Virus record (IMG/VR): IMGVR_UViG_3300043220_000070
Location: 11,577-75,576 of that record
Source: a virus
Lineage: Duplodnaviria; Caudoviricetes
Reading direction: 5' to 3' (one strand)
Length of the DNA stretch: 64,000 nt
Part shown: in pieces, positions 6,846 to 59,217 of the stretch
Numbering within the stretch: position 1 is the first letter of the stretch
Layout: each line of letters begins with the position of its first letter
The notes under the pieces: model-generated
Told to the model about the DNA's origin: nothing
Seen by the model: only the letters and a program-made list of their open reading frames with translations
Databases searched by the model: none
Program-made: the position numbers and the translations under genes

Positions 6846-7075
6846 ATAGTTTTTTGAAGAGGTTGTTCCGAAGAACCTGTCGTTCACATGACATGGAGCC
6901 GGTCATCTTTCCCCCTCCTAAGTTCGAGTGTCTTTATGACGGCTACCTTTGGGGGGCAACGATTATGGTGTGTAGGCACTGTTGGCAAGTGGAAGTCAGG
7001 GAACAGCGGGTAGATACGGCGGAGGAAAAGGTCTACGTGCGCCAGACTGTATTGAACAGGGGGAGGGCACAATAA
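6842..7075 (+). CDS. Hypothetical protein
   Basis: GTG overlapping HNH stop, within track ORF 6773..7075. Confidence 0.5.
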   Translation: MNSFLKRLFRRTCRSHDMEPVIFPPPKFECLYDGYLWGATIMVCRHCWQVEVREQRVDTAEEKVYVRQTVLNRGRAQ

Positions 7076-8370
7076 CCGGCTTATTCTGGGCCATGTCCCT
7101 AGTGCTGTCCGACCCCACCTTCCTGGAGAAGTGGAGGCACGCGCTCGTCCCTGAGTCGCTCCCCAAAGGGCCAACACGGTTCCTTCTGGCGTCCGCTCTC
7201 GAGCACTGGGATGCCCACCACCAGCTCATGGACTGGGCGGCCTACCTCTACTGGGTAGATAGTGCCATTGAAGATGAAGATTTGCATAAGGACTACCGGC
7301 AAATCTTCCTTGACATCCAGTCCGCCTATCCCATCACCGCCTCCAGCCACCCTACTGCATGGGAGGCGGCAGAGGAATGGCTCCAGAGCTACCATGTGGG
7401 GATGGCACTCGACCGTGCCCGAGCCGCTCTTGTCGCCGGCGACCGGGGTGGCGCCTTTTCTGAGCTCTTAGGACTACGGGAGGTGACTGGTGAAGAAAGA
7501 GAAGACCCTATTGAACTGGTACCTAGTGATGCCCTCGGGGACATTATTCGCTCTCGGCGCTCTACCAACTGGAGAGACGCCCCAATTCCACTGGGTATCG
7601 ACCTCATGGACGAAGCGCTGGAGGGGGGAGTACAGCGAGGTGACCTAGCCATCATCGCTGGCCCTACCAACCTAGGTAAGTCGATGTTCCTATGCTATCT
7701 GGCAGCGTCGGCGTACAAAGCAAACCGGCGTGTCCTCTACCTCACATATGAGCTCAGCCGCCTCCATATTGGGGAGCGTATCTTGATGGCACTCTTCGAG
7801 AAGCCGAAGCAAGACCTCAACCCCGACACGGTAGCGGACGAATTGATAGCCCGGAGGGAACGGTGGGGAGTGACTGACCGCGGGAGTGTGGTGATTGAGG
7901 ATGGGCTGCGTACAGTCACCGACCTGCGGCACCGGTTGGAGGAGGACGATGTTGACCTCGTGCTACTGGACAGTGCGGACGACATTTCCCCCCGACAGAA
8001 CTACCCCAATTTGTATCTGTCGCAAGGCGAGGTGTACTCGGACATTTTGCTGGACATTTGCCACGGCATGAACCTCCCAGTTTGGACTTCGGTTCAGTTA
8101 AACCGCGAATCGGTAGAGCGCGCCCGTGTCAACCTCCGTCACATCGGAGACAGCTTCAAGAAGGTGCAGAGGTCGACGTTGTGTGTAGCCGTCTCCCAAT
8201 CCCGGGAGGAGGAGGATTATTACCTAGCCCCACTCGTCAAACTCTCCGTGCTGAAGGACAGCCAGCACGGGGCGAAGGGAAAATGGTGGAGGTACACCAC
8301 TGCATTTGGACGGGGGGCCAAGGGTTGGCCTGGGTTCAGCCACTTCCCGGAAAGGGGCTCGCTGGAATGA
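7072..8370 (+). CDS. dnaB: Replicative DnaB-like (SF4) helicase; start ATA 7072 or ATG 7093
   Basis: Walker A IAGPTNLGKS, Walker B LVLLDSAD, WTSVQLNR motif. Confidence 0.9.
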   Translation: MTGLFWAMSLVLSDPTFLEKWRHALVPESLPKGPTRFLLASALEHWDAHHQLMDWAAYLYWVDSAIEDEDLHKDYRQIFLDIQSAYPITASSHPTAWEAAEEWLQSYHVGMALDRARAALVAGDRGGAFSELLGLREVTGEEREDPIELVPSDALGDIIRSRRSTNWRDAPIPLGIDLMDEALEGGVQRGDLAIIAGPTNLGKSMFLCYLAASAYKANRRVLYLTYELSRLHIGERILMALFEKPKQDLNPDTVADELIARRERWGVTDRGSVVIEDGLRTVTDLRHRLEEDDVDLVLLDSADDISPRQNYPNLYLSQGEVYSDILLDICHGMNLPVWTSVQLNRESVERARVNLRHIGDSFKKVQRSTLCVAVSQSREEEDYYLAPLVKLSVLKDSQHGAKGKWWRYTTAFGRGAKGWPGFSHFPERGSLE

Positions 8371-8516
8371 ATGCTAAAGAGACCCACCTCCTGGCCACTG
8401 GTTCTGGCTACTACTGGCTCAAGACGGTATGCGGAACAGTAATCAGCCGGCGGGAGTACCACGAATCGCTCGGCTCTAAGTACATCTGTTCCGCTTGTCT
8501 CCCCAGAGAGAGGTGA
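8367..8516 (+). CDS. Small zinc-finger-like protein (49 aa)
   Basis: MNAKETH...TVCG...ICSAC; ATGA overlap. Confidence 0.55.
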   Translation: MNAKETHLLATGSGYYWLKTVCGTVISRREYHESLGSKYICSACLPRER

Positions 8517-8522
8517 CCTTGA

Positions 8523-8657
8523 GTGACCGAAGAAGATGAACACGCCTTCTGTGAGCAGTGTGGGGACTGCATCGTCTGCGAGCCCGACCACTACTGCGAC
8601 GTTTGCAAGGGGTGCAGGTGGGCCTGCGGTGGCTGTGAAGAGGAGCAAGAGGGATGA
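8523..8657 (+). CDS. Cys-rich miniprotein (44 aa, 9 Cys)
   Basis: Manual translation MTEEDEHAFCEQCGDCIVCEPDHYCDVCKGCRWACGGCEEEQEG; SD GAGGTG; stop overlaps next ATG. Confidence 0.65.
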   Translation: MTEEDEHAFCEQCGDCIVCEPDHYCDVCKGCRWACGGCEEEQEG

Positions 8658-9025
8658 CTGGAACCACACCCAACCATAAGATTCCGTTCTGGTTGGAGTA
8701 CCCCCTCAATTTCCCCGGGCGCGTCACCGATGAGATACGCGTCCTCTGGGTATCCACTGTTCCCCTACTCGCAGACGTGTGGGGTGTCTCTAAAGCCGAG
8801 GCTCGGCGCCGTCTTCAACAGCAGCAGGTGCGGGAATGCGGGCTGTCTGGCCCCCCCGTCCAGCCGGGGGAGGTAATGGTGCAGCTCGGTTGTGCTTGGG
8901 TGATGCCCCACGGCAACAGCTTTCATACCATTGTATTCGTGGACATCCCAAGACCCTGGCACCGGCGCCTCACCGACTGGCTCCTAAGCCGGTGGGAGCA
9001 TTCCCCCTGGAGGAGGTACAGATGA
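8654..9025 (+). CDS. Hypothetical protein
   Basis: Track ORF with coupled start and stop. Confidence 0.6.
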   Translation: MTGTTPNHKIPFWLEYPLNFPGRVTDEIRVLWVSTVPLLADVWGVSKAEARRRLQQQQVRECGLSGPPVQPGEVMVQLGCAWVMPHGNSFHTIVFVDIPRPWHRRLTDWLLSRWEHSPWRRYR

Positions 9026-9975
9026 ACGTCCAAGCACTCATCAGCACAATAGAGAACGCCGGCTTCACGGTCGACCTGGTGGAGGGAGGCACGGAGTTGG
9101 TGATGGCCTGCCCCCTCTGCTTTTCGGAGGTGCGCAAACTCTACATCTCCACTGACCACGGGGCCTTCATCTGCTTCGTCTGCAACGAGCGGGGCTCTCT
9201 CCGGCGTCTCCTCATCAGCGTATGCGAGCTGAGCTTCAACGACGCCGCCGTGCTGGAGCGCTCCATCCTCGGGGGGAAGAAGCGAGCCGCCATCACCGTC
9301 CCCCGGCCGGCGCCGCCATCTACTGTGGAGCTACCTTCTGGCTTCCAATACGACCCCGGGAATGGTTTGGCCGCGGTCTACCTAGCATCTCGTGGACTAC
9401 TCCCAGCGTGGGTGAACGCTTTGGATATTGGCTACTGCCTCGTGGGGAGATATGCCTGCCGTGTCATCGTCCCCGTCTATACCCAGGGCGCCCTGCGCAC
9501 CTTTGTGGCCCGAACCTGGCGCCCGGAAGAGAAGAAGAAAGTATTGATGCCTGAGGGCAGCCAGGCCAGCCGCGCTCTATTCGGGTACGACGGACTCCTC
9601 ACCGACCGAGCCTACTGGAAGAACCTCATTTTGGTCGAGGGTATCTTCGATGCCCTCCGCATGTGGGAGTACGGCTACCGCGAGACGCTAGCCACCTTAG
9701 GCGCCCACACTACGGAGCTCCAAAGAAGCCTGGTGAAACACTTGAAGCCTGAGCGCGTTATAATCTTGATGGACGCGGACGACGCCGGCCGGGAGGCTGC
9801 TATCAAGGAGGCCCGGGAGTTCGTCTACGACATGCTCCCGGTCTCAATTGCTCAGCTCCCTGAGTGTACTGACCCGGCATCAGCATCACCCGCGGACATC
9901 CGACGGGCGCTTGACACAGCAAAGCCCGTTACGTTAGACTACGGAATCGAGAGTCAGAAGGAGATGCATCAATGA
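9022..9975 (+). CDS. dnaG: DnaG-type primase (Zn finger + TOPRIM)
   Basis: CPLC...CFVC; ILVEGIFDA; LMDADDAGREA; SD AGGAGG before ATG 9022. Confidence 0.9.
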   Translation: MNVQALISTIENAGFTVDLVEGGTELVMACPLCFSEVRKLYISTDHGAFICFVCNERGSLRRLLISVCELSFNDAAVLERSILGGKKRAAITVPRPAPPSTVELPSGFQYDPGNGLAAVYLASRGLLPAWVNALDIGYCLVGRYACRVIVPVYTQGALRTFVARTWRPEEKKKVLMPEGSQASRALFGYDGLLTDRAYWKNLILVEGIFDALRMWEYGYRETLATLGAHTTELQRSLVKHLKPERVIILMDADDAGREAAIKEAREFVYDMLPVSIAQLPECTDPASASPADIRRALDTAKPVTLDYGIESQKEMHQ

Positions 9976-12439: not shown

Positions 12440-12681
12440 CCGGCCAAACACCTAGCTGTCAGTTCTTCCCCTCCTCCTCCTCGAGCTGCCTTCGCCGGCC
12501 GACGGTGTTCCTTCATAGCCTGGAGCGTGGCCTTTTGTGGCTATGCGTGGGCGTGCACCTGCGAGAGCAGGACGAGCGTGACGGGCAGATGCGCGAGGCT
12601 GAGATGGAGGTAATTCTCCAAGAGAAGATGCAGGAGTGGGCGCTCGAGTCTGCTCTTATAGCGTTCGGGTTACGACCATGA
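12436..12681 (+). CDS. Hypothetical protein
   Basis: Track ORF with coupled overlaps. Confidence 0.55.
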   Translation: MTGQTPSCQFFPSSSSSCLRRPTVFLHSLERGLLWLCVGVHLREQDERDGQMREAEMEVILQEKMQEWALESALIAFGLRP

Positions 12682-13661
12682 CCCAGACCTACTCACCAAT
12701 CACAAGCGTCAGGATTAAGAATTTCCAATCGTTGGAAGACTCTACTCTCTACCTCGGGCAACTGTCCGTTCTAGTCGGCCCCGGAGACGCAGGTAAGAGC
12801 GCTGTCCTCCGTGCCCTGCGCGCGGCCTTCCTCAACGACGCTTCCGATGACGACATCCGCCATGGGGCTAAGAAGATGGAGGTAGCACTCACCTTTGAAG
12901 ATGGGGTGGTCATTGAATGGTGGAAGCAGAAGGGACAGGGTGGGTGTTACCGGATGACGGACAGCGCCCCTGAGCGAGAGTTCACCAAGACGGGAGGCGC
13001 CGTACCAGATGAGGTCGCTGAGTACCTAGGTATCGGGCGCATTGAGGTGGACGCTACTACCGAGCTCACCCCTCAGCTCAGCGACCAGCACGACGTGCCG
13101 TTTATCCTCTGGGAGACGGGGAGTAAGCGTGCCCGCATACTTGGGAAGGCAACTCGTTTGGACATGGTGGTGTCGGCCCAGATGTTGTGCAAGAAGGAGC
13201 TAGACCAGACGAGGCGGGGGGCGGAGGAAGCCACTACTGCCCTCGCTGATGTTGAGGTGCGCCTCGAGGAGCTACCGGATTACCGGGCCATTGAGGGCGA
13301 GCTGGACGAGGCGGAGGCCAATCTTAAGACCATTGGCGACAACATCCTTCTAGCGGGCCGGGCTCGGGAGTTGGCTGACCAAATTGCGGAGGTGAACTCC
13401 CGAGCCACGGCCATAGACGTGCCGTCCCTGCTCAAACGGGTGGAGGTATCGTCCGACGCACTGGAGGTAGCGGCGCGTGGGCACTTCCTGGCCCAGCGCA
13501 TCCCCGAGGTTACGAGCCTAGTAGCCAACCTAGGCAAGCGCCACGCCGACCACCAGGAGGCCCTAGCGAGCTTCCAAACCCAGCTCACTGTAGTCTGCGA
13601 GGAGGCAGGGGTTTGTGAAACCTGTGGTGGGTTGCTTAGTCATAAGGAGTGTGGAGGATGA
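12678..13661 (+). CDS. sbcC: SbcC/Rad50-like ATPase, N-terminal half (Walker A, coiled coil, zinc hook)
   Basis: VRIKNFQS, VGPGDAGKSAVLRAL, Q-loop LSDQHD, ends CETCGG. Confidence 0.85.
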   Translation: MTQTYSPITSVRIKNFQSLEDSTLYLGQLSVLVGPGDAGKSAVLRALRAAFLNDASDDDIRHGAKKMEVALTFEDGVVIEWWKQKGQGGCYRMTDSAPEREFTKTGGAVPDEVAEYLGIGRIEVDATTELTPQLSDQHDVPFILWETGSKRARILGKATRLDMVVSAQMLCKKELDQTRRGAEEATTALADVEVRLEELPDYRAIEGELDEAEANLKTIGDNILLAGRARELADQIAEVNSRATAIDVPSLLKRVEVSSDALEVAARGHFLAQRIPEVTSLVANLGKRHADHQEALASFQTQLTVVCEEAGVCETCGGLLSHKECGG

Positions 13662-14325: not shown

Positions 14326-14361
14326 ACTTGTAGTATAATGGACTGGGGCTACTAATGTCAA
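14311..14361. promoter_or_regulatory. Interlocked divergent sigma70-type promoters
   Basis: + strand TTGCGG(14311)-N17-TATAAT(14334); - strand TTGACA(14361-14356)-N18-TATACT(14337-14332). Confidence 0.7.
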
Positions 14362-15338
14362 GCAAAATCCTCATCTTCGGAGACCTACATCTAGCTGACC
14401 GTCCGCCGGGGGGGCGGGTAGATGACTACGCAACCACCGTGCTGGGCAAGCTACAGGAAATTGGTAGCCTCTGCGAACGCGAAGGAGCCGGACTCGCACT
14501 CTCCCTCGGGGACTGGTTTCACATCAAGCAACCTAACCGGGTGTCTCACCACTTGGTGCGAAAAACCATTGAGGTCTGTCAAGCCTTCCCTTGTGAAATC
14601 TGGGGGGTTTACGGTAACCACGACATTTCTCCTGATGGCACCTTCGACCGCCAGCCCTTAGGGGTGCTCCAGGAGGCGGGGGCTGTACAAGTACCCCGGG
14701 AAGCCGTTTTATTTGCTGAGTTCTGGCTCGTCCCTCGTCCTTACAATGCCTCGGCCGAGGGCGTACACGATGGGCAGACCGACCCCTCATACTACTCTCT
14801 GGCCGACGAGGAACGAGAGCTCATCGCCAAGAACCCAGCGCCGGTCATCGGCCTGGCCCACGGCTCCATCGTAGGCCCCGGTGACAGCCGGCCGTACCCC
14901 TGGGTCAACGTCGACCAGATACCGGGACTCGAGGATTACGACCTGTTTATCTCTGGCCATCTGCACGAGTGCCTTGGAGTGGTGCAGGTGGGGAAGACCA
15001 TCTTCGCCAACCCCGGGTCTATAGGTCGGACGCGGCGGGACATCGCCTCCTACGCCCGCACGGTGGAGGTGTTGGTGGTCAGCATTGACGAGAAGGGGTT
15101 GACGGTGGAGGAGGTGCCACTGCCGGGTGTGGCGCCGGCACTCGAGGTGTTTGGGAAGCGGGAGGCGGAGGATGCTCCCGACCTACCGGCGGACGAAATC
15201 ACTCAATTCGTTGACGTGCTGGGTGAGGGCTTGCGTGCAGACGAACTTTCGGTGCCCGAGCTGCTGGCGGAGCTCGGAGACATCGAGCCTGAAGTGAAGG
15301 CTGAGGTGGAACGTTTACTAGAGGAGGTATCAACATGA
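14355..15338 (+). CDS. sbcD: SbcD/Mre11-like metallophosphoesterase nuclease
   Basis: GDLHL, LGDWFH, GNHD, AHG, SGHLH, NPGS. Confidence 0.9.
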   Translation: MSSKILIFGDLHLADRPPGGRVDDYATTVLGKLQEIGSLCEREGAGLALSLGDWFHIKQPNRVSHHLVRKTIEVCQAFPCEIWGVYGNHDISPDGTFDRQPLGVLQEAGAVQVPREAVLFAEFWLVPRPYNASAEGVHDGQTDPSYYSLADEERELIAKNPAPVIGLAHGSIVGPGDSRPYPWVNVDQIPGLEDYDLFISGHLHECLGVVQVGKTIFANPGSIGRTRRDIASYARTVEVLVVSIDEKGLTVEEVPLPGVAPALEVFGKREAEDAPDLPADEITQFVDVLGEGLRADELSVPELLAELGDIEPEVKAEVERLLEEVST

Positions 15339-15999: not shown

Positions 16000-16189
16000 C
16001 ATGCACCCCCTACTTCTTATGCAGCGCTTTGAAGACTGGGCACTAGACAAGGTAGGGGGTAAGCGAGGTGCCTTGATTTTCGCTATTGGATTCTTTCCGA
16101 TAGTCTTGGTGAGCTTACTTACCTGCCTCATCCCAAGCTACGTAGTGTTAATCCGAGAGGAAGGGCGTAAAAGGAGGAGGCATGGATGA
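15992..16189 (+). CDS. Small membrane protein
   Basis: Hydrophobic ALIFAIGFFPIVLVSLLTCLIPSYVVLI. Confidence 0.55.
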   Translation: MSDMHPLLLMQRFEDWALDKVGGKRGALIFAIGFFPIVLVSLLTCLIPSYVVLIREEGRKRRRHG

Positions 16190-16829
16190 ACTAACCCAGC
16201 TCCGGTCTGACCTGAGCCGCGTCCGCCAACGGTGCAGCGAATGGCGGGGACAGGCAACGATGCTGGAGGCCCAGCAGCAGACCCATGAGGTACAGAGGAA
16301 GGAGCTACTGACCCGGTTCGACGTGCTGGAGAAGGCCCAGAGGGTGCTTCAATTGTTAGAGGATACATGGCGCGGCCGCTACGAACAGGCATTGGCAGCT
16401 CTGGGTAGCCAGGGTCTGAGTGCTGTGTTCGACAAGAAGATGGAGGTCATCTTGGAATCGACTATCAAGAGAGGCGCCGCCAGCATGGACATCGCCCTAA
16501 TCACTGATGGTCTACGAACCCGAATCAAGGGTGCAAAGGGCGGTTCGGTAGCCCAGGTGCTGGCAGTGCTGCTACGGCTGCTGTTGGCGCTCTCCGGCCG
16601 GCCAGCGATGCGTCCGTTGCTGACCTTAGATGAGCCTTTTTCGATGGTGAGTGCAGAGTACCGCCCGGCTTTGTGTGCTATGTTGCAGGAGACCACCCGG
16701 CGCCTCAACTTCCAAATGTTATTTACCGCGCATGAGGGGGAACTCCTGGACGCCGCGGATGTGGCGTACATGGTGCACCCAGGCGGGCGGGTGGAACAAC
16801 TCAAGAGTTCAAGGGAAGACAGAGCATGA
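16182..16829 (+). CDS. sbcC: SbcC/Rad50-like ATPase, C-terminal half (signature, Walker B, H-loop)
   Basis: Coiled coil then GAKGGSVAQ (degenerate signature), LLTLDEPF, FTAHE. Confidence 0.85.
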   Translation: MDELTQLRSDLSRVRQRCSEWRGQATMLEAQQQTHEVQRKELLTRFDVLEKAQRVLQLLEDTWRGRYEQALAALGSQGLSAVFDKKMEVILESTIKRGAASMDIALITDGLRTRIKGAKGGSVAQVLAVLLRLLLALSGRPAMRPLLTLDEPFSMVSAEYRPALCAMLQETTRRLNFQMLFTAHEGELLDAADVAYMVHPGGRVEQLKSSREDRA

Positions 16830-17146: not shown

Positions 17147-17519
17147 CCAAGATACCCTCAACGTGCCATTCTCACCCCATCTAGCCAGTATCAACCCGCT
17201 TCGGGACTATCTACACGAAGCAACCACGAGCGTTATATGGCACTTCCACGCTCTCAAGAACGGGCGTATCATCCTGGTCAATCCACTGAGGAAGACACGC
17301 CTCTGCCAAGAAGAGGGGCGCTGTGTCCTCATTTCAGTCAATGATATGCAGGTGCTGAGGGACTACCACCACCTGGGGTGCTCAGACCCCCAGTGCTGCC
17401 CACGCCAGATTTTTGGAGTGGGTAAAGACGGGGCGACCGATATAGCACCGGGCCTAAGGGGGTTGAACACCCTAGCGGAGGAACATGACCTCGACGTTGC
17501 CCCCGAATCAAAAGTGTAG
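17139..17519 (+). CDS. Hypothetical protein
   Basis: Track ORF, SD GGAGGAG. Confidence 0.6.
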   Translation: MSNQDTLNVPFSPHLASINPLRDYLHEATTSVIWHFHALKNGRIILVNPLRKTRLCQEEGRCVLISVNDMQVLRDYHHLGCSDPQCCPRQIFGVGKDGATDIAPGLRGLNTLAEEHDLDVAPESKV

Positions 17520-20151
17520 CCACTGTCCTGCCTTAGCCAAGACCCGGCGCTGCATTGTGAGTGGCGCCGGTGTCCGGGACGCCACGATAGCGTTCGTTGG
17601 GGAAGGCCCGGGACAGGTTGAGGACGACAAGAACCGGCCGTTTGTGGGTAAGGCGGGGAGGGTGCTGCACGTCATCCAGTGGGCGGCCGGTATCGACCAG
17701 TACAAGGTCTTCCACACTAATGCCACACGCTGCTGGGGCAAGCGGAACCCGAAGCCTGCCGAAGTAGACGCCTGCCACGACTACCTCATTGAGGAACTGC
17801 GGGAGCTCAACCCAACCGTCATTGTGGCGCTGGGAGGCGCCGCCATCCGTTCCCTCTATCGCCCGGGCATCACTGTGGGCTCGGTGATGGGCTTCACCCT
17901 GTACAACGACGAGCTCCCCGGTACCCCCATCATCCCAACCTATCATCCCTCCTACATCATGCGCGGCCACTGGAATGAGGTAGCGTTGGTCATCTCCCAC
18001 TTCCGCAAGGCAAAGCGCATCGCTGAGGCGGGGGGTATTGAGGAGAAGCTGGGCTCCTACGTGGGCGTCACCACCCTGGAAGACCTACGGGCGCTTCGGG
18101 ACTATCTGCTCGGGCCGGACGTGGAGAGCATCGCCATCGACACGGAGACTACGGGTCTTTCCTGGATGGATTCAGAGCTCCTCTGCATCAGCTTCTCTGG
18201 TGAGGTGGGTACGGGCTTCAGCGTCCCCATCCTCCACCGCGGTGAGCGTACTGTCATGAAGGAGAAGGGGCGGGGTAAGAACCGCAAGGAAGTAGAGGAG
18301 ACGGAGTGGTGCCCCGTCCCCTACTGGCCGGACGATGAGTTTGAAGAGGTCTACACTATTCTCGGTGAAATCCTCAGTTCCGATAAGCCTAAGGCGGGTC
18401 AGAACATCGGGTTCGACCTACGGATGCTGGAGCGCTCGCCCTATGAGGCAGCGGTGACGGCCCGGACTGCTCTAGGGTTCCAAGTAAACAACGTGAGGCA
18501 CGACACCCGGCTGCTCTCCTCTCTCCTATCGGAGGTGAGCCCCGCCAACCTCACGGCCCTTACTGCCTACTGGACAGATATTCCATATTATGAGGCTGAG
18601 GTGGCCGGCATGAAGTCCCGGATGTGGGAGGTTGAAGATAAAACTCTATGGGAATACGGAGGAGCCGATGTCGATGTGGTGCAGACCCTCGTGCCCCTGC
18701 TCCACCCCAAAGTGCAGGACGAGGGCACCGACTGGGTGTATGAAAACATCTCAATCCCACTAATTCGCTGCGCTACGAAACTAGAGGAGCGGGGTGTCTA
18801 CATCGACCAAGAAGCCTTCGACAAGCTCTGTCGGTATTACAAGGCGCACCTGAAGGAGAAGAAGGAGGAGCTGAACGAGACGGTGGGTCGGGTGGTGGAG
18901 CACCCAACGCACTACCAGCACGTCCAGAAGCTCGTCTTTGAAGACCTGGGGCTCCCCTTAACTAATGAAGCAACCGATGGGGCCGCCAATGAATGCGATA
19001 AGTGCCGGAAGCTAAGTAGCCCCTGCTCATCGGCCCACGCTAAGACCTCAGCCGATTCCTTGAAGGAGCTGAATGAACGGTCTCCTCACCCCGTCCTACC
19101 CCTACTCATTGACATCCGCACTGATGAGAAGCTCTACAGCACCTACCTTGAGGGGGGTGGGGGTGGTGGGTTCCGCCCCCACATCCGCGCCGATGGTCGC
19201 ATCCACGCCCGCTGGAATGCGGCCCGTGCCGCTACCGGCCGCTTCGCCTGTGAAGAGCCCAACCTTATGAACCTACCCAAGGGGGTGGAGATTCAATCCG
19301 ACGAGTACGACATCCACTCCAAGGATGCCCTACGCGCTATGCTTGGTGCACCCCCCGGCTACGGGCTACTCAACGCCGACTGGAGTCAGGCGGAGGTCTG
19401 GGTCATGGCCTATGAGACCAAGGATGAGACGCTACTCCGGCTGCTGATGGAGGGAAAGGACATCCATGCCTACGTCGCCCGGGAGCTCTGCAAGCTGGGA
19501 GTCTCCAGCAAGTTCCCCAAGGGGAGCGTGGATGAGCCCCTCTCACTAGAGGAGTGGAGGGACAAGTACAAGGACATCCGCGACCGCGGAAAGACTTTCG
19601 TTTTTGGCATGAACTACGGTCTGACGGCCGAAGGAGCAGCGCAACGCCTAGGATGCTCCAAGGAGGAGGTATCCCCCCTCCTAGCGTACTACGTCCAGCA
19701 CATCTTCCCCGGAATGGGGCCGTACTTCATCTGCATTCGTGAAGAAATGTTCCGAGACGGGTCAGTTAGTGACCGCTTTGAGCGCCGGCGCCACTTCGCT
19801 GAGGTGCCCCTCCTGGCGGCGCTACGCTACCGCGGAGACCTGGAGGGAGCGGTGCGCCAGGGGTACAACATGCCTATCCAGGGTGGGGCGCACGACCTGC
19901 ACTCTCTAGCGCACATCGCCACCGAGCGGGAGCTCTCGCCGTTCATTGAGCCTGTACTCGAAATGCATGACAGCCTTATGTCCTACCCCCCTCTCGACCG
20001 CCTTGAAGAGGCGGCGGCCGCCATCAAGGAACTGTGGGAGGACGTGGCGCGCAATACCATCCTACCGTCCGGCGAGCGGCTTGCGTGGGAGATTCCCGTG
20101 GAGGTACAATGGGGGAGGAGCTTCGGAGATTTGGAGGTGCGCCTTGAGTGA
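17485..20151 (+). CDS. polA: Family A DNA polymerase with N-terminal family-4 uracil-DNA glycosylase domain
   Basis: UDG: CSHC, GEGPG, RPFVGKAG, NATRC, YHPSY; Exo: IDTETTG, NIGFD, YGGAD; Pol motifs A DWSQAE, B KTFVFGMNYG, C MHDS. Confidence 0.95.
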   Translation: MTSTLPPNQKCSHCPALAKTRRCIVSGAGVRDATIAFVGEGPGQVEDDKNRPFVGKAGRVLHVIQWAAGIDQYKVFHTNATRCWGKRNPKPAEVDACHDYLIEELRELNPTVIVALGGAAIRSLYRPGITVGSVMGFTLYNDELPGTPIIPTYHPSYIMRGHWNEVALVISHFRKAKRIAEAGGIEEKLGSYVGVTTLEDLRALRDYLLGPDVESIAIDTETTGLSWMDSELLCISFSGEVGTGFSVPILHRGERTVMKEKGRGKNRKEVEETEWCPVPYWPDDEFEEVYTILGEILSSDKPKAGQNIGFDLRMLERSPYEAAVTARTALGFQVNNVRHDTRLLSSLLSEVSPANLTALTAYWTDIPYYEAEVAGMKSRMWEVEDKTLWEYGGADVDVVQTLVPLLHPKVQDEGTDWVYENISIPLIRCATKLEERGVYIDQEAFDKLCRYYKAHLKEKKEELNETVGRVVEHPTHYQHVQKLVFEDLGLPLTNEATDGAANECDKCRKLSSPCSSAHAKTSADSLKELNERSPHPVLPLLIDIRTDEKLYSTYLEGGGGGGFRPHIRADGRIHARWNAARAATGRFACEEPNLMNLPKGVEIQSDEYDIHSKDALRAMLGAPPGYGLLNADWSQAEVWVMAYETKDETLLRLLMEGKDIHAYVARELCKLGVSSKFPKGSVDEPLSLEEWRDKYKDIRDRGKTFVFGMNYGLTAEGAAQRLGCSKEEVSPLLAYYVQHIFPGMGPYFICIREEMFRDGSVSDRFERRRHFAEVPLLAALRYRGDLEGAVRQGYNMPIQGGAHDLHSLAHIATERELSPFIEPVLEMHDSLMSYPPLDRLEEAAAAIKELWEDVARNTILPSGERLAWEIPVEVQWGRSFGDLEVRLE

Positions 20152-20299
20152 GCACACACCACCCTTACACATCGTCTGCGGCCGGCGTCACTGGCCCGGG
20201 TCGTGCCCCCAGGAGGATGGGTTGAAGGCTCGGGTGTGGTACAAGCTGTCCGTCCTGGCTGGATGGATTACCCCCTGGAGAAATGGGCACGATGACTAG
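20148..20299 (+). CDS. Small hypothetical protein
   Basis: GTGA overlap with polymerase stop; within track ORF 19946..20299. Confidence 0.45.
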
Positions 20300-20921
20300 G
20301 GGTAAGGAGCCCATTACCCGTGGGCCAGATGGTCTGATGCCGGCACAGCGAGAGTATCTTCAGAAATATGCTGAGACCGGTACTGAGGCTGAGGCGCGTC
20401 AAGCCCTAGGTCTCTCGAATCGGCGTATCGCGCGCTGGCACCGGGAAGAGGAAGCCTTCCGCAAAGCCTACGACGAGACGATTGGCAGCGTCCACGAGGC
20501 TGTTGCCCAACGCCTCAAGGGTGTGGAGGAGGAGCTGCCAGACGCCATCCGCCGGCTGATGCACGGTGTGAAGCCCATCCCAGTCAAGTGCCCCGGCTGC
20601 GGTGAGAAGTTCACGGTGGACGTGGAGAACCAGACTGTCCAGGCGCGCATTGTCGAGATGATGATGAAGGCCCAGGGGCACCTAAAGGACGTACGGCGCC
20701 TCGAGGGTGAGGCGCTTATCACACACTTGACATTGGGACAGCGCATGGCGCTCTCCCTGCACAATTTGGGCAAAGAAATTAGCGCGCAGAGCCGCCGCGA
20801 CCTCATTAATCTAAGGCTCATTGAGGAGGAGGTGCGGCCCCCTGACGACCCCAACGTGGTGGAGGGCGAAGTCCGCGAGGTCGATGCAGAGAAGGAGGAA
20901 AGCGATGACGATTCGCGGTGA
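20283..20921 (+). CDS. HTH protein resembling a terminase small subunit
   Basis: QREYLQKYAETGTEAEARQALGLSNRRIARWHREEEAFRKAYDE; CxxC insert; C-terminal VVEGEVREV. Confidence 0.5.
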   Translation: MGTMTRGKEPITRGPDGLMPAQREYLQKYAETGTEAEARQALGLSNRRIARWHREEEAFRKAYDETIGSVHEAVAQRLKGVEEELPDAIRRLMHGVKPIPVKCPGCGEKFTVDVENQTVQARIVEMMMKAQGHLKDVRRLEGEALITHLTLGQRMALSLHNLGKEISAQSRRDLINLRLIEEEVRPPDDPNVVEGEVREVDAEKEESDDDSR

Positions 20922-21096
20922 GACAAGCGACTTACTCAAAGATGTCTACCTAATCGCTCATGTGCAGGCGATGCTGGATAAGGACGCCCTGAGCTTGGCC
21001 GTCGACTGGGCGAGTCTTCGGGTGCGTGCCGAGGGTGTGCTAATCCGTGAGGGCGTTAGCCTGCCCAAGTTGCCAGACCCACCCAGTGTGGAGTAG
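20905..21096 (+). CDS. Hypothetical protein
   Basis: SD AGGAGG before ATG 20905. Confidence 0.6.
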   Translation: MTIRGETSDLLKDVYLIAHVQAMLDKDALSLAVDWASLRVRAEGVLIREGVSLPKLPDPPSVE

Positions 21097-21116
21097 GGTG
21101 CAACTAGCGAAAACTA

Positions 21117-21129
21117 TTGTGTAACACAA
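21117..21129. promoter_or_regulatory. Isolated perfect TTGTG-N3-CACAA palindrome
   Basis: TTGTGTAACACAA in the intergenic gap before the KTSC gene. Confidence 0.6.
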
Positions 21130-21169
21130 CCAATTTCGTAACGTTGTAGGTAGTGAAAGGAGGTGCCCC

Positions 21170-21406
21170 GTGGCTAAGTTTTTACCGGTAGTCTCACAGG
21201 CACTAGTCTCCGTGAAGTACGAAAGGGAGCAGGCCCGACTGGTCGTCCAATTCGGAGAAGACAGCTTCTACGAGTACGATGGCGTGCCGGGGGACGTGGT
21301 GCTGGACTTCATGTTCGCCGACTCCATCGGCTCCGCCTTCTCCGCTTTGGTGAAGAAGGGCGGCTTCCAGTTCAGGAAGCTACCCGCAGACCAGGCCGGC
21401 ATCTAA
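21170..21406 (+). CDS. KTSC domain protein
   Basis: SQALVSVKYEREQARLVVQF...YEYDGVP...FMFADSIGSAF. Confidence 0.85.
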   Translation: MAKFLPVVSQALVSVKYEREQARLVVQFGEDSFYEYDGVPGDVVLDFMFADSIGSAFSALVKKGGFQFRKLPADQAGI

Positions 21407-21413
21407 GGGAGAA

Positions 21414-21719
21414 GTGATGGCATGGGAAAACGAAAGCGGCGACAACGACCCAAGCAGGTGGCCAACCGCCAGCACCCGGTTGAACTGGGCCAGGAACAAT
21501 TATCTGAAGAGCGAGTACACGATGCAGCAGAAGCTCCAGAAGTTCCTGGTGCAGTTGATGAACCTGATAGCCCTGGCCGACCTAATCGAGGAGGAGGGCG
21601 GGGAGGCGGTAGTGACGCCCAAGCAGAAGAGGGCGTGGGTGGAGCTATACCAGGTGTGGCGCCCTACCAAGCAGGTGGGCCGGCCGAAGAACGGTTCCTC
21701 AACTGGCCCCACCGAGTAG
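21414..21719 (+). CDS. Hypothetical protein
   Basis: SD GGGAG; more protein-like than the overlapping N-terminus of track ORF 21422. Confidence 0.55.
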   Translation: MMAWENESGDNDPSRWPTASTRLNWARNNYLKSEYTMQQKLQKFLVQLMNLIALADLIEEEGGEAVVTPKQKRAWVELYQVWRPTKQVGRPKNGSSTGPTE

Positions 21720-22879
21720 TCCAGACCCCGGAAGACCTGCTGGAATTCGGGGAGTGGCTCCAGGTACTGGGGGGAGAGGTGGACAAGACACCGGTGGGTA
21801 TCGCCGCCTCACGTAACGAGCTGGCGCTAGCGACTAAGGCCCAGGGCTGGCTCCTCATGATGCGCGATTGGCCCCCCCTCACATCCCAACCTATCGTCCA
21901 GAGCGTGCTGGGTAAGGCCCTCACAACCGAGCGGACAGCCCCCGCCCTCGTCACCCGAGACACCGGCCGGCTCATGGTGGCCCTAGACGAATGGCTGGGA
22001 GAGTACGACCGAGACACCCTGCTCCCCAACATCGTACACGACATGGGCGCATTGGAATACGCGACGGGGCGGGCTATCGCTCGAGACCAATCACCTCTCA
22101 AGGACGCACTGGATTGCGCCGTTGTGGGGCCAGGGCTGGCGCTAGAAGCCCCCCGCTTCTACCGGGAGGTGGGAATGCCCCTCGTGCGGCATAACGCCCG
22201 GGGGCTCAATTATGAGTCTCTCGGTACCAATTCTGAGACAAGTCGCTGGACTCTCACCTATGATTGGCTCCTGTTCAAGATGCTGGCCCACTACACCCGT
22301 GACCCTACTCTCATCCGGTGGTTCCAGGAGGGTAGGAGCCCCATGCAGGAGTTCGCCAGCTACCTGGAGCTCGACTCGAAGGAGGCAGTGGCGTTCCTCT
22401 TGTGGATGGTGTGTGGAGAGAGCGGGGAGCTCGTCAGCCGCTACTACCCCGACTGGGCTGCTTGCCTACCGGAGTCCCTCCAGCTCATCAAGGCGTCCCG
22501 GGTGGACAAGAACCTCCCAAACCTCCGCATGGGGCTCATCCGCCTGACCGACCAGTACGCCACAGCCCGCAAGACCACAACGATGTACGGGCGCCGCTCC
22601 CCGTGGGGCCTGCGGCCGGAGGAGCTCCTGCACTTCGTCATCATGGGTTCGGTAAATGATTTACTGGATGTCGTGGTGGCCTCCATTATCGACATGGGAA
22701 GCGAGCAGCATTGGCTCGTCCCCGCGTCCGAGTCCAAATACAGTCACTGGCTCCGAGCTCAGATAGTGGGTTACACTAAGGAAAACTCTATGGAGTGGCA
22801 ACAGAATCTAGAGAAGTTGGGGACGCTTAACAATCCCTTGGGTGTGGTGCCACTCGAGCCCCGGGTGAGTGTTGAATGA
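21656..22879 (+). CDS. Degenerate (predicted inactive) family A polymerase paralogue; track start 21422, probable start GTG 21656
   Basis: Colinear similarity by eye to exo domain and to motif A/B regions of the 17485 polymerase, with catalytic residues lost. Confidence 0.75.
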   Translation: MAPYQAGGPAEERFLNWPHRVVQTPEDLLEFGEWLQVLGGEVDKTPVGIAASRNELALATKAQGWLLMMRDWPPLTSQPIVQSVLGKALTTERTAPALVTRDTGRLMVALDEWLGEYDRDTLLPNIVHDMGALEYATGRAIARDQSPLKDALDCAVVGPGLALEAPRFYREVGMPLVRHNARGLNYESLGTNSETSRWTLTYDWLLFKMLAHYTRDPTLIRWFQEGRSPMQEFASYLELDSKEAVAFLLWMVCGESGELVSRYYPDWAACLPESLQLIKASRVDKNLPNLRMGLIRLTDQYATARKTTTMYGRRSPWGLRPEELLHFVIMGSVNDLLDVVVASIIDMGSEQHWLVPASESKYSHWLRAQIVGYTKENSMEWQQNLEKLGTLNNPLGVVPLEPRVSVE

Positions 22880-23070
22880 TATACATCACGCCTACATATG
22901 ACCCCTACAAGGGCGGGATACAGTGCGCCGCATGGGTCTGGAAACGAGACACGTACCGGTACACGGGGGGAACTCCCAGTGGATTCACAATGCACTACAA
23001 GAAAACCCACTGTAGACGTTCTACCAAGCGAGGATTTACCCTCTGTTGGCAGCACGAGAGGATGAGGTAG
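22876..23070 (+). CDS. Small basic hypothetical protein
   Basis: ATGA overlap. Confidence 0.55.
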   Translation: MIYITPTYDPYKGGIQCAAWVWKRDTYRYTGGTPSGFTMHYKKTHCRRSTKRGFTLCWQHERMR

Positions 23071-23075
23071 AACAT

Positions 23076-23558
23076 ATGAGCTGCCACCCCACCCATTTTG
23101 AGGCACCTCCCCTACCCAACGTTCCCGAAGAGCAGGTAGAGAAGAACTGGGAGGAGTTTCGGAAGGAAGACCGCGTTGACCCGCGGGCTATCCGCCGCCA
23201 GCACCGCTTCAAGCCCGGCCACGAGCCGGATTACCTCGAACCTGAATCAGGTTGGAAGTATGTGCGGTTGGAGCAGGAGTCCGACGCGGAGCCCGACCAA
23301 CTTGACCTCCTCACTGGCGGCCCTGAGAGTGGATTACCTTGCGAGCGATGTGGTACAATGACTGTGGTGGGTGGCGAGACCACCATGTGGGAAATCTACC
23401 AGCAAGAGAACGTGAGCGTAGTCAACATCGACGACATCACCGAGAGCCGACGCCAGGAGCTTCAGGAAACGATAGTCGTCATCCTGGTGTGCCCGGAGTG
23501 CAAGCTGAAGACGCAGTGGCTCGAGGAGTTTCTGCCGCGGAAGTTGGGCCACGACTAG
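23076..23558 (+). CDS. Hypothetical zinc-binding protein
   Basis: CERC...CPEC; SD GAGGT. Confidence 0.65.
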   Translation: MSCHPTHFEAPPLPNVPEEQVEKNWEEFRKEDRVDPRAIRRQHRFKPGHEPDYLEPESGWKYVRLEQESDAEPDQLDLLTGGPESGLPCERCGTMTVVGGETTMWEIYQQENVSVVNIDDITESRRQELQETIVVILVCPECKLKTQWLEEFLPRKLGHD

Positions 23559-23569
23559 GGAGGTGTGAA

Positions 23570-23803
23570 GTGAAAATCAACGTTGAGATTTCCCAGAACC
23601 AATACGTAGGGGAGCATCAGTATGTGCCTGCTCTCATCGGTCTAACCATTGCCAACCCCACAGGTGCTAAAGGCCCCCATGCTTACTTGCGCCCAGAGGT
23701 AGTCACCTTCATTGACCTCACAGCTAAACAGGCCCGCGAGCTGGCCCAGGAGCTTCTTCGTAACGTTGAGAAGGTTGAGAAGGGGGAGGTGCGGGACGGG
23801 TGA
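23570..23803 (+). CDS. Hypothetical protein
   Basis: SD GGAGGTG before GTG 23570. Confidence 0.6.
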   Translation: MKINVEISQNQYVGEHQYVPALIGLTIANPTGAKGPHAYLRPEVVTFIDLTAKQARELAQELLRNVEKVEKGEVRDG

Positions 23804-57044: not shown

Positions 57045-57433
57045 TATGCGACCCTCCCTAACATTACCCAGATGGGACGGGCGGCCTTCTTCAAATTACA
57101 CTCCTTACAGCAGGGGGCAAGATTGTAGAAGTCATTAGTCCCACCCCGAGCTACGGGCTGAAGATGGTCAACACCCGTTGCCAGGGCGCCGCAGTAAATG
57201 CAATCCTGCCCGTAGTAGGCATACACAGCAGCCAACTCCTCCTGAGTGAGGAGTGGAGCGTTCCGCTGCCGCGCAAGTTGCCTCTGTGTTACGACTGAAC
57301 GGTTCCGCTCGCGCCATGCCTGAGCCCGAGCCTTATCCCGTTCTCGGTTCCTTGCGTACCAGCGCCTATCAGCGGCCCGCATCTTCTCCGGGTTCCGCCG
57401 GTTCCATCGCTGCTGAGGAGTTAGTTCGTTCAT
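57044..57433 (-). CDS. HNH endonuclease between terminase and portal
   Basis: CIYCG...VDHLQPVARGG...NLAPCCKECNLKK. Confidence 0.9.
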   Translation of the reverse strand: MNELTPQQRWNRRNPEKMRAADRRWYARNRERDKARAQAWRERNRSVVTQRQLARQRNAPLLTQEELAAVYAYYGQDCIYCGALATGVDHLQPVARGGTNDFYNLAPCCKECNLKKAARPIWVMLGRVA

Positions 57434-59217
57434 TACCTTAACCAAGGGCGTGGGGTGTTCCCGGCCATTCTACGGTCTTGCACAATACCATGAGGCCCAA
57501 CCATGATTATCTCATTCTCCTTAATAGGCCCTATAGAGCGTCCCTGCTTTGCAGTGTACCGCGCTGCCGCCTGGGGCGCAATATAGCATAGCCCCGCGTA
57601 GCACAGCACGATGTCGTCCTTCTGGCCCTTACCCGCCTCCTTGAGCCCGTGGCGTTTCTGCGCTACCTTCTGCCACGTAAAGGCACCCATCTGCTGCACC
57701 CCCCAAGCATCCGAAGTGTGGAAGAGGCCGGCAAACACCTTCTCACGGAGCGCGTTCAGGATGTGCTGGCGAATTTGGTTAGGGTGGCCCCACGGGTCTT
57801 GGATGGGCTTCTTGATGCTCATCGACTGACCAGGCTCAATAAAGAACCACAGATTCCTGTAGCCAGTATCCTGAACCTTAGCCACGCAGACTGAGCCGTA
57901 GGCATCGCGCTCTCCCCCCAGAAGGGCGTTGTTGTAATACTTGGCGATGGCCACAGCCATCGGTGCCGCTTCCTGGGGCGCCACCTTAACAGCCAGCCGT
58001 GCCGCGATGAACATATCGGCGCAATCCATCACGACAATAGCAGTGTAGTCAGCTCCTTCATCAAGGCCACCCCCCGCACAGTCCACCCACACAGCATAGG
58101 GCCGCCCGAGCTGGGGGCGCTGCCAGATGTGAAGTCCGGCCCCCATGAAGCCCACCGAGCTCCCCGGCACGCTCTCCACGATTTCCTTGGGAGGCTTGAC
58201 CGTCTGCCGGTACTGCTCCAGGTGGTTGATGCCCTCCTGGGTGGCAAAGTAGCTCCCGCCGGCCGTCAGGAAGCAACCCTCCAGTGTCTCCACGTACTCC
58301 TGGAGGAAGGGGGCGGAGGTCTTATCCTGTTCCGACTTCCGCACGCGGCGCCAGATGACCTGACCCACATCCAGGTCGTACTCATCCATGAGCTTCTCCT
58401 CCTCCCTAGTCGGGTGGAAGTTCTGGAGGAGGCCCTCCCACTCCTGCTCGGTGTAGGGCACGTCGCACCCGGGCGTGGTGCCCGCGCGGTAGCGCGGTTC
58501 CAACCACCAGGGGTAGAAGTGCGTTGACCACCGGGACTGCGGGTTGAAGGTCTTGGAGTCCGACACCATATCATAGAACTGACCCTCGGCCCCGTTGGGA
58601 GTCGACTCAATATCCATCCACCCAGCAGGCGGCCCGGGTACGGAGGGCGTGATGCCTCCGATGAGGATTTTGGCCTGGTCTCCCGGCCACTGGGCAAACT
58701 CACTCAAATGAGCTATGTGCGCGCTGTAGGCCCTACCAGTTCCCGACTTTTCCTCCCCCGAACCAAAGATGTAGCGGCAGCCTGTATCGGTGAGTTCCAA
58801 CTCATCGTCGTTATCGAGACCAATAGCGAACGGGAAGCCGTGCTGCTCCAAGTCCTTTAGGTGATGCTTGATACGGGTACGAAATGTTCCCGTAGTCTGG
58901 TCTTTCTGAGTCATCACCAAGCACTTCAGGCCCGAGTGGGTCACCATCCGCCGCAGATTCCTAGCCAGGATGTAGGACGACGCACGGGTCTGGCGCCCCT
59001 TGACCGTTATGTCGCGCCCTGTCTTATTGTGCGCCATTTGAATCTGCTGAGGATAGAGGTTGAACGGTACAACCTTGCCCTGCTCCGAGTCAATACTGAG
59101 CAAAGCTTCTATCCAATCTATCTCATCCTGGGGCGTTTCGCCAAAGAATAGACGTTGGATGTTGGGGTCGTCGAAGAGGTTCTCTTCTAGTCTCCGAACA
59201 GTGGAAGGTTCGGTCAT
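57433..59217 (-). CDS. terL: Terminase large subunit
   Basis: VPFNLYPQQ, KGRQ, HLSEFAQW, IESTPNG, FLQEY, nuclease VDCAGG...DY and KDDIV. Confidence 0.92.
   Translation of the reverse strand: MTEPSTVRRLEENLFDDPNIQRLFFGETPQDEIDWIEALLSIDSEQGKVVPFNLYPQQIQMAHNKTGRDITVKGRQTRASSYILARNLRRMVTHSGLKCLVMTQKDQTTGTFRTRIKHHLKDLEQHGFPFAIGLDNDDELELTDTGCRYIFGSGEEKSGTGRAYSAHIAHLSEFAQWPGDQAKILIGGITPSVPGPPAGWMDIESTPNGAEGQFYDMVSDSKTFNPQSRWSTHFYPWWLEPRYRAGTTPGCDVPYTEQEWEGLLQNFHPTREEEKLMDEYDLDVGQVIWRRVRKSEQDKTSAPFLQEYVETLEGCFLTAGGSYFATQEGINHLEQYRQTVKPPKEIVESVPGSSVGFMGAGLHIWQRPQLGRPYAVWVDCAGGGLDEGADYTAIVVMDCADMFIAARLAVKVAPQEAAPMAVAIAKYYNNALLGGERDAYGSVCVAKVQDTGYRNLWFFIEPGQSMSIKKPIQDPWGHPNQIRQHILNALREKVFAGLFHTSDAWGVQQMGAFTWQKVAQKRHGLKEAGKGQKDDIVLCYAGLCYIAPQAAARYTAKQGRSIGPIKENEIIMVGPHGIVQDRRMAGNTPRPWLR

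Follow-up and report, generated by a model that had tools for sequence, protein, structure and literature searches.

Does a polymerase gene that has lost its active sites still serve the phage that carries it? The question is raised by a gene at positions 21,656 to 22,879 of a 64,000-nucleotide stretch of phage DNA (Duplodnaviria; Caudoviricetes). This stretch, bases 11577-75576 of the IMG/VR virus record IMGVR_UViG_3300043220_000070, is called the window here, and coordinates refer to it as a whole. The initial annotation, made from the letters alone, had read the gene as a second, catalytically degenerate paralogue of the active family A DNA polymerase (PolA) encoded upstream of it. That active enzyme is a fusion of uracil-DNA glycosylase (UDG), exonuclease and polymerase domains and is referred to as the resident UDG-PolA. 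We found that the product of the gene in question, here called the pseudo-polymerase, is a real protein with a family A polymerase fold, that its catalytic residues and its thumb are lost, and that it is maintained under purifying selection across one lineage of UDG-PolA phages of roughly 50-75 kb. We suggest that it has a non-enzymatic part in the replication or processing of phage DNA.

The gene product has the fold of a family A polymerase

The gene lies in a long open reading frame (ORF) that is uninterrupted, as the initial annotation had claimed. Its parts are listed below, with residues numbered from the first ATG.

21422-22879, plus strand: uninterrupted maximal ORF, 485 codons, starting at ATG 21422
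21635-22879, plus strand: likeliest translated form of the pseudo-polymerase coding sequence, 415 codons from GTG 21635 or 408 from GTG 21656
21686-22093, plus strand: 3'-5' exonuclease-like (RNase H-like) domain, predicted to be inactive, residues 89-224
22094-22876, plus strand: palm and fingers without thumb, residues 225-485
22244-22342, plus strand: relic of motif A, residues 275-307 (from hhalign, the Taq alignment and column counts in 40 and 61 sequences)
22385-22423, plus strand: relic of the O-helix and motif B, residues 322-334
22577-22672, plus strand: T-x-Y-G-R turn and helix Q, the best conserved PolA signature left
22703-22777, plus strand: relic of motif C, a beta hairpin with a lengthened loop

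An AlphaFold2 (AF2) model was built with 40 homologues. Residues 1-87 are disordered in this model, and the folded part starts at residue 89 (nucleotide 21686). The predicted local distance difference test (pLDDT) score exceeds 90 over most of residues 89-485, and 345 residues score at least 90. When the model was compared with the PDB by Foldseek, the top 50 listed matches were family A polymerases only, with E values of about 1e-10. VIA-align superposed it on M. smegmatis Pol1 (6vdd) with a Z score of 22.9 and a root-mean-square deviation of 4.8 Å over 349 residues, on the Bst enzyme (3hpo) with 21.6 and 4.0 Å over 339 residues, and on the Taq enzyme with about 20 and 4.3 Å over 324 residues. 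Overall, 324-352 residues were aligned. The alignment with Bst pairs residues 93-485 of the model with Bst 297-869, which is the whole large fragment including the vestigial exonuclease domain.

Profile searches gave the same answer at the sequence level. The broad family profile (A2), run against the PDB sequences, matched Taq Pol I from motif A to the C-terminus with an E value of 1.1e-12 and 50.7 bits. By hhalign against a Klenow-headed PolA alignment, residues 280-434 were aligned to Pol I 706-875 with 95.5% probability and an E value of 1.4e-8. In distant loci the profile weakly matches the true PolA gene (E 2e-5 to 9e-4), and this adds to the evidence for homology. The fold proposed at first sight was thus upheld by profile and structure searches alike. 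The six segment pairs that the initial annotation had listed by eye all fall at homologous positions of the PolA fold in hhalign and in the Taq alignment. They are the start of the exonuclease domain, the HD(M/T) strand-helix, the first helix of the polymerase domain, motif A, the T-x-(Y/F)-G-R-R turn and helix Q.

The single protein had no match in Pfam or PHROGs, and PF00476 was not reached. The close-subfamily profile (A1) found no PolA among the PDB sequences. BLASTP against the resident polymerase gave as its best match a 19-residue stretch of motif A with an E value of 0.07, which is not significant alone. The exonuclease-like domain by itself was not significant in hhalign (E 0.07, probability 0.8%), and the positions of the exonuclease carboxylates were therefore assigned from the model. 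In BFVD we found full-size PolAs only and no thumbless counterpart. A search with profile A2 for longer relatives, fused or full-length, returned none, which is weak evidence.

The active sites and the thumb are lost

To follow the catalytic positions through the family, we counted alignment columns in 40 close and 61 broad family members. The register was set by hhalign, in which Tyr280 corresponds to Pol I Tyr706. In motif A, the position of Pol I Asp705 is Thr279. It is T, S, V, A or K across the family, with Glu in 3 of the 61 representatives, and Asp is not among the eight commonest residues there. The position of Glu710 is Leu284 and is L, W or F family-wide. In motif B, the position of Lys758 is Val323 and variable, and the position of Tyr766 is Cys331 (C, L or T family-wide), next to a retained glycine, Gly332. 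Two further O-helix residues, Arg754 and Phe762, correspond to Lys320 and Leu327, at positions that are variable or hydrophobic in the family. In motif C, which was placed by strand order and the Taq alignment, His-Asp-Glu appears to have become His430-Trp431-Leu432, and the Asp882 position is I, P, V or W family-wide. The position of Gln849 is hydrophobic in the pseudo-polymerase and in the family as a whole.

The exonuclease-like domain has fared in the same way. Its ExoI positions, which are placed by strand order, appear to be hydrophobic. The only acidic position of this domain conserved in at least 80% of the family is Asp207, which is non-catalytic; Asp228 and Asp231 are acidic in 67-72% of the members.

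The thumb is missing as well. A stretch of 14 residues (260-273) separates the first helix of the polymerase domain (245-259) from the motif A strand (274-281), where Pol I has about 155 (about 545-698) that make up the thumb and the adjoining palm segment. What survives is a core of the motif A helix, the T-x-Y-G-R turn, helix Q with Gly409 and Asp413, and the C-terminal strand. Asp413 is near-invariant, as is Arg391, which corresponds to Pol I Arg841.

The initial annotation had listed ExoI, the motif B Lys and Tyr, the motif C His-Asp and the thumb as absent. All of these losses were confirmed, and the motif A Asp is gone too. Lacking carboxylates, O-helix ligands and a thumb, the pseudo-polymerase is very unlikely to polymerise or to proofread, judging from its residues.

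One family member of about 25% identity (P0098) carries an intein-like insertion of about 260 residues. It starts with Cys, ends with His-Asn and is followed by Thr, and it has a sub-threshold LAGLIDADG match. The insertion directly follows the conserved motif A Tyr, and the intein therefore sits in the relic of the dead active site.

Purifying selection within one phage lineage

Clustering of the family gave 45 clusters when the cut-off was 90% identity and 74 representatives when it was 50%, and the family reaches down to about 22% identity. The frame of the pseudo-polymerase is intact in every relative over this whole range. Against the closest relative (L009), the ratio of nonsynonymous to synonymous substitution rates (dN/dS) is 0.10 for the exonuclease-like domain and 0.18 for the polymerase domain. 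In the same comparison it is 0.105 for the active PolA and 0.094 for the neighbouring gene for a KTSC-domain protein. In more distant pairs, dN/dS of the whole gene is 0.15-0.31. The values of 0.10-0.18 in the folded domains indicate purifying selection, and neutral decay, which the initial annotation had named among the findings that would refute it, is ruled out.

The distribution of the gene was determined by profile search in 78 viral loci with relatives of the UDG-PolA. The pseudo-polymerase is present in 15 of 15 contigs that have enough flank and a polymerase at least 36% identical to the resident one. About 65 loci whose UDG-PolA is at most 28% identical lack it within the flanks fetched. 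A tblastn search of 50,697 cultured-phage records gave no homologue.

Relation to bacterial Pol I

The word paralogue suggests a copy of the neighbouring gene, and in this sense the initial annotation was not supported. The family profile scores 50.7 bits with Taq Pol I, 22.5 bits with E. coli Pol I and only 8.3 bits with the resident UDG-PolA. The co-resident polymerases of other family members score 3-13 bits. In a word-seeded search of 5.8 billion proteins, the sole matches outside the family were Thermus Pol I, with E values of 1e-6 and 1e-5. Based on these profile scores and on the Thermus-only matches, the pseudo-polymerase looks like a captured large fragment of a cellular-type Pol I whose exonuclease had already been lost. 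This origin is read from search scores, and the word seeding biases the larger search. The pseudo-polymerase would thus be a paralogue of the resident UDG-PolA in a wide sense only, and it does not appear to be a recent duplicate.

The 5' end and an overlapping ORF

The first part of the maximal ORF behaves differently from the rest. All-frame translation of ten loci revealed a second ORF, which overlaps it in the +1 frame, an overlap that the initial annotation had missed.

21417-21719, plus strand: ORF X, a 100-amino-acid three-helix protein in the +1 frame, overlapping the 5' end of the long ORF

ORF X has a good ribosome-binding site; this one site precedes two ATGs that are 5 nucleotides apart, one in the frame of the long ORF and one in that of ORF X. 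Its product ends in a conserved G-R-P-K tail, which is AT-hook-like. Its identity is 89-39% across the clade and 27% in L008, and it was called as a gene of its own in L001 and L008. In six of eight pairs, dN/dS is 0.25-0.44 for ORF X, compared with 0.53-1.07 for frame 0. The ORF X model consists of three helices with a mean pLDDT of 79, whereas the frame-0 translation of the same DNA is disordered. Within the long ORF, dS falls to 0.076 over codons 1-88, compared with 0.44-0.54 downstream. In frame 0, a stop interrupts the tail in L001 and an HNH gene does so in L013, and distant members lack it altogether. We had considered residues 1-88 as a conserved basic N-terminal tail, and this was rejected, as the conservation tracks the +1-frame gene.

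The first 71 or so codons of the maximal ORF, counted from 21422, overlap the better conserved ORF X and probably do not belong to the pseudo-polymerase. The conservation of ORF X and the disordered, broken tail in frame 0 place the start most likely at GTG 21635 or GTG 21656, with a long form from ATG 21422 conceivable. The codon at 21635 (Val72) lines up with the ATG starts of several homologues. The codon at 21656 (Val79), where the initial annotation had begun the gene, is an in-frame GTG and a plausible initiation codon.

In L013, an HNH endonuclease ORF lies between ORF X and the pseudo-polymerase gene (about 8210-8740 of that locus). The source gene call (P0012) fuses this HNH ORF in frame to the pseudo-polymerase.

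A conserved gene cassette

The pseudo-polymerase gene is the last of a small group of genes. In the conserved order, a protein of about 200 amino acids with a helix-turn-helix (HTH) like that of the small terminase subunit (TerS) comes first, followed by the KTSC-domain protein, one or two small ORFs (ORF X in the window) and then the pseudo-polymerase. The first two genes of the window are:

20283-20921, plus strand: 212-amino-acid protein with a terminase-small-subunit-like N-terminal HTH and a partial Cys ribbon, the first cassette gene (PHROG 4044, E 2.1e-5)
21170-21406, plus strand: KTSC-domain protein of 78 amino acids, immediately upstream (Pfam PF13619, E 4.8e-12)

The genes are packed 0-10 nucleotides apart or overlap. 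The UDG-PolA gene is upstream of the pseudo-polymerase in 15 of the 15 contigs with enough flank, and the cassette occurs in all phage contigs of this UDG-PolA lineage but is absent near about 65 more distant UDG-PolAs. The HTH protein was found in every related locus, and its homologue in L019 has a faint match to Sf6_terminase; the KTSC gene is missing from its cassette position in one contig (L008). The placement of the gene next to KTSC and HTH-type genes, about 1.5 kb downstream of the active UDG-PolA, was borne out, and relatives share the order. Scans for sigma-70 promoters and terminators over 20100-23600 found no more than shuffled sequences give.

The complex of the pseudo-polymerase with the KTSC protein was predicted with a median score of 0.36, compared with 0.01 for the best control. 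This mark was reached by 58 of 80 solved complexes and by 2 of 110 mismatched pairs, and scores of 0.60 or less were seen in only 7 of those 80 solved complexes and in both of the mismatches that passed. Contact agreement between runs was at least 92%, and the pLDDT of the partner was at least 83. The prediction weakly supports binding.

A TTGTG-N3-CACAA palindrome is present at 21117-21129, in the 248-nucleotide gap between the HTH gene and the KTSC gene. It lies just upstream of the KTSC ribosome-binding site and may be a cassette operator.

The phage genome and its resident polymerase

The record of 75,576 bp has direct terminal repeats and was rated complete by CheckV. The stretch was located in one sequencing run only, a marine sediment metagenome that is its probable source; the phage is uncultured, and no RNA run is listed as containing the stretch. 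The plus-strand half of the genome is a replication and recombination block with a superfamily 2 (SF2) helicase, a DnaB-like helicase, a primase, SSB, a RecA/UvsX-like protein, an SbcC-like protein, an Mre11-like protein and an exonuclease. Structural genes are on the minus strand. The genes that bear on the cassette are:

6982-8370: DnaB-like helicase
8836-9975: primase
17485-20151, plus strand: resident active UDG-exonuclease-PolA, 888 amino acids (Pfam UDG, DNA_pol_A_exo1 and DNA_pol_A)
57433-59217: large terminase

When the resident UDG-PolA was aligned to Taq, motifs A, B and C were intact. Its ExoI-III residues and those of motifs A, B and C are invariant in 10 relatives.

At the tip of its thumb, the resident enzyme has a Cys-rich insertion (window 18994-19038, residues 504-518), in which Cys504, Cys507 and His518 are invariant in ten relatives. 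This insertion may be a zinc knuckle, at the position of the thioredoxin-binding loop of T7 polymerase. In two relatives the active UDG-PolA contains an intein-sized insertion, at about 6321-7087 in L001 and about 6170-6918 in L003. The two insertions are at different sites, in the thumb region and the ExoII region. A weak Hint match is on record for the L003 product and none for the L001 product. Elsewhere in the block, the Mre11-like phosphoesterase gene (14355-15338) is flanked by an SbcC-like N-terminal half (12636-13661) and a separate ATPase gene of PHROG 15167 (16182-16829).

Discussion

What can a polymerase without catalysis do for a phage? The initial annotation had proposed a scaffold, a DNA-junction sensor, a decoy or a regulator as possible roles. 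Because the pseudo-polymerase is fixed in its lineage and packed in an operon-like cassette of the replication block despite its lost catalysis, we consider it, with a probability of about 0.6, to be a non-catalytic structural or binding subunit in phage DNA replication or processing. As a PolA-derived protein that keeps the exonuclease-like domain, the palm and the fingers, it would hold DNA, partner proteins or both. It would act in phage DNA replication or in replication-coupled DNA processing, probably in concert with the other cassette proteins, in the way that other viruses use inactivated B-family polymerases.

Several points weigh against this proposal. The predicted binding to KTSC is only weak, and the TerS-like neighbour could point to packaging and not to replication. 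Poxvirus F12 is a dead polymerase reused for something unrelated to DNA synthesis (PMC4304020). Finally, the ExoI and motif C residues were mapped from strand order and from the profile (Taq) alignment, not from an inspected superposition.

A more detailed version is tentative and, taken as a whole, rather unlikely. In this version the products of the four cassette genes would assemble at a specific DNA site, which could be an origin or the terminal-repeat junction, and the pseudo-polymerase would dock or position the active UDG-PolA or the helicase-primase there. The pseudo-polymerase would then be a family A counterpart of herpesvirus UL8 or of the non-catalytic half of Pol epsilon, and its source would be a cellular Pol I captured by the phage.

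Other uses of the protein have to be weighed. It could have been reused in DNA packaging, end processing or morphogenesis, where the cassette would recognise a DNA site such as a concatemer junction or terminal repeat and the pseudo-polymerase would be an adaptor there and not at the fork. The resemblance of the first cassette gene to a small terminase subunit, the direct terminal repeats of the genome and the reuse of F12 in morphogenesis (PMC4304020) speak for it. However, the TerS-like match is weak and covers the HTH only, and the cassette lies in the early or middle plus-strand replication block, about 35 kb from the large terminase gene. On balance we regard packaging as unlikely.

It is also quite unlikely that the pseudo-polymerase is a mimic or decoy of host Pol I, which would compete with the host enzyme or titrate or shield its partners or sensors. 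Its targets might be nick or flap sites, host processes that depend on Pol I, or defence sensors that recognise polymerases. Such a role would agree with a family profile far closer to bacterial Pol I than to the phage polymerase, with Thermus Pol I as the sole match outside the family, and with an exonuclease domain that was already vestigial, as in Taq. But the thumb and most of the known DNA-contact residues are gone, which weakens mimicry at DNA, and the gene is locked in a cassette with phage-specific partners inside the replication module. In addition, a decoy aimed at a polymerase sensor should set the sensor off and not block it.

There is little room for remaining catalysis at a relocated or non-canonical active site, be it that of a polymerase or nucleotidyl transferase or that of a nuclease. 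One candidate residue is Asp281, two residues past the lost motif A Asp, which 39 of 40 close-subfamily members keep and the other replaces by Glu. In the wider family, however, this position is D, P, E or S, and there is no second conserved carboxylate near motif C. The near-invariant Asp413 and Arg391 might be added to it, but true PolAs conserve them too, for structure or for contact with DNA. The protein also lacks the thumb and the Lys, Arg and Tyr of the O-helix.

A decaying pseudogene or gene-calling artefact, which the lack of a Pfam or PHROG match and the off-frame look of the 5' part of the long ORF might suggest, is refuted by dN/dS in the folded domains, by the intact frame across relatives and by the confident AF2 model.

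A non-catalytic subunit made from a polymerase has precedents in family B. Herpesvirus UL8, the C-terminal half of Pol epsilon and poxvirus F12 are inactivated B-family polymerases (PMC8187027, PMC2669801, PMC4304020). UL8 is the third subunit of the helicase-primase, and the Pol epsilon module has been described as an inactivated polymerase-exonuclease module (PMC8187027, PMC2669801). Like them, the pseudo-polymerase has a polymerase fold, has lost the catalytic residues and is conserved; this is an analogy and not homology. They are of family B, unrelated in sequence, and known non-catalytic subunits, whereas the pseudo-polymerase is of family A and a predicted one.

The closest known structures are the large fragments of bacterial Pol I (KlenTaq 3po4, Bst 3hpo and 6vdd), which have the same domain order, a vestigial exonuclease followed by palm and fingers. 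The motif A helix, the T-x-(F/Y)-G-R-R turn, helix Q and the C-terminal strand are shared. Pol I of the Taq/Bst type is the best match of the pseudo-polymerase (E 1e-12, Z 20-23, 15-20% identity). Compared with Pol I, the thumb of about 155 residues has shrunk to 14, and the protein has about 400 residues in place of about 540-580. Asp and Glu of motif A, Lys and Tyr of motif B, Asp and Glu of motif C and Gln849 are all replaced.

Extra polymerase genes have been found in other phages. The divergent phage PolAs divPolA1 and divPolA2 have a truncated or absent thumb and an inactive or missing exonuclease; their palm catalytic residues were reported as conserved and activity was predicted (PMC11348598, Virol J 2024). 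They share with the pseudo-polymerase that an extra, diverged PolA-fold gene stands beside a regular phage DNA polymerase. However, the palm catalytic residues that they keep are lost in the pseudo-polymerase, and their carriers, Flavobacterium phages of 155-190 kb and barbaviruses, are different phages. Aligned by hhalign with the divPolA1 protein (MW353176 gene 1), our family profile gave a probability of 0.08% and no similarity, and it had no match anywhere in the divPolA genomes MW353176 or MG592441.

The resident polymerase is a UDG-exonuclease-PolA fusion of the kind described for N4-like and other phages (NAR 2023, PMC10201439), and the pseudo-polymerase has no UDG domain. In the same reclassification, 19 PolA clusters are distinguished, and the passages covered describe inactive exonuclease or UDG domains, broken thumbs and split exonuclease and polymerase genes (PMC10201439). 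These passages describe no PolA with a dead polymerase site. Within the parts consulted of this 2023 PolA reclassification and of the 2024 survey of extra PolAs, we found no earlier description of an inactivated family A polymerase as a structural subunit.

The family described here is a compact, thumbless and catalytically empty PolA scaffold, which is fixed in a whole phage lineage and tied to three small genes. If the origin suggested above is true, a phage captured a cellular-type Pol I, and catalysis was then lost. The partners of the pseudo-polymerase, once found, would show how a clamp-less phage replisome is organised around a UDG-PolA, and they could give the uncharacterised KTSC domain its first functional context.

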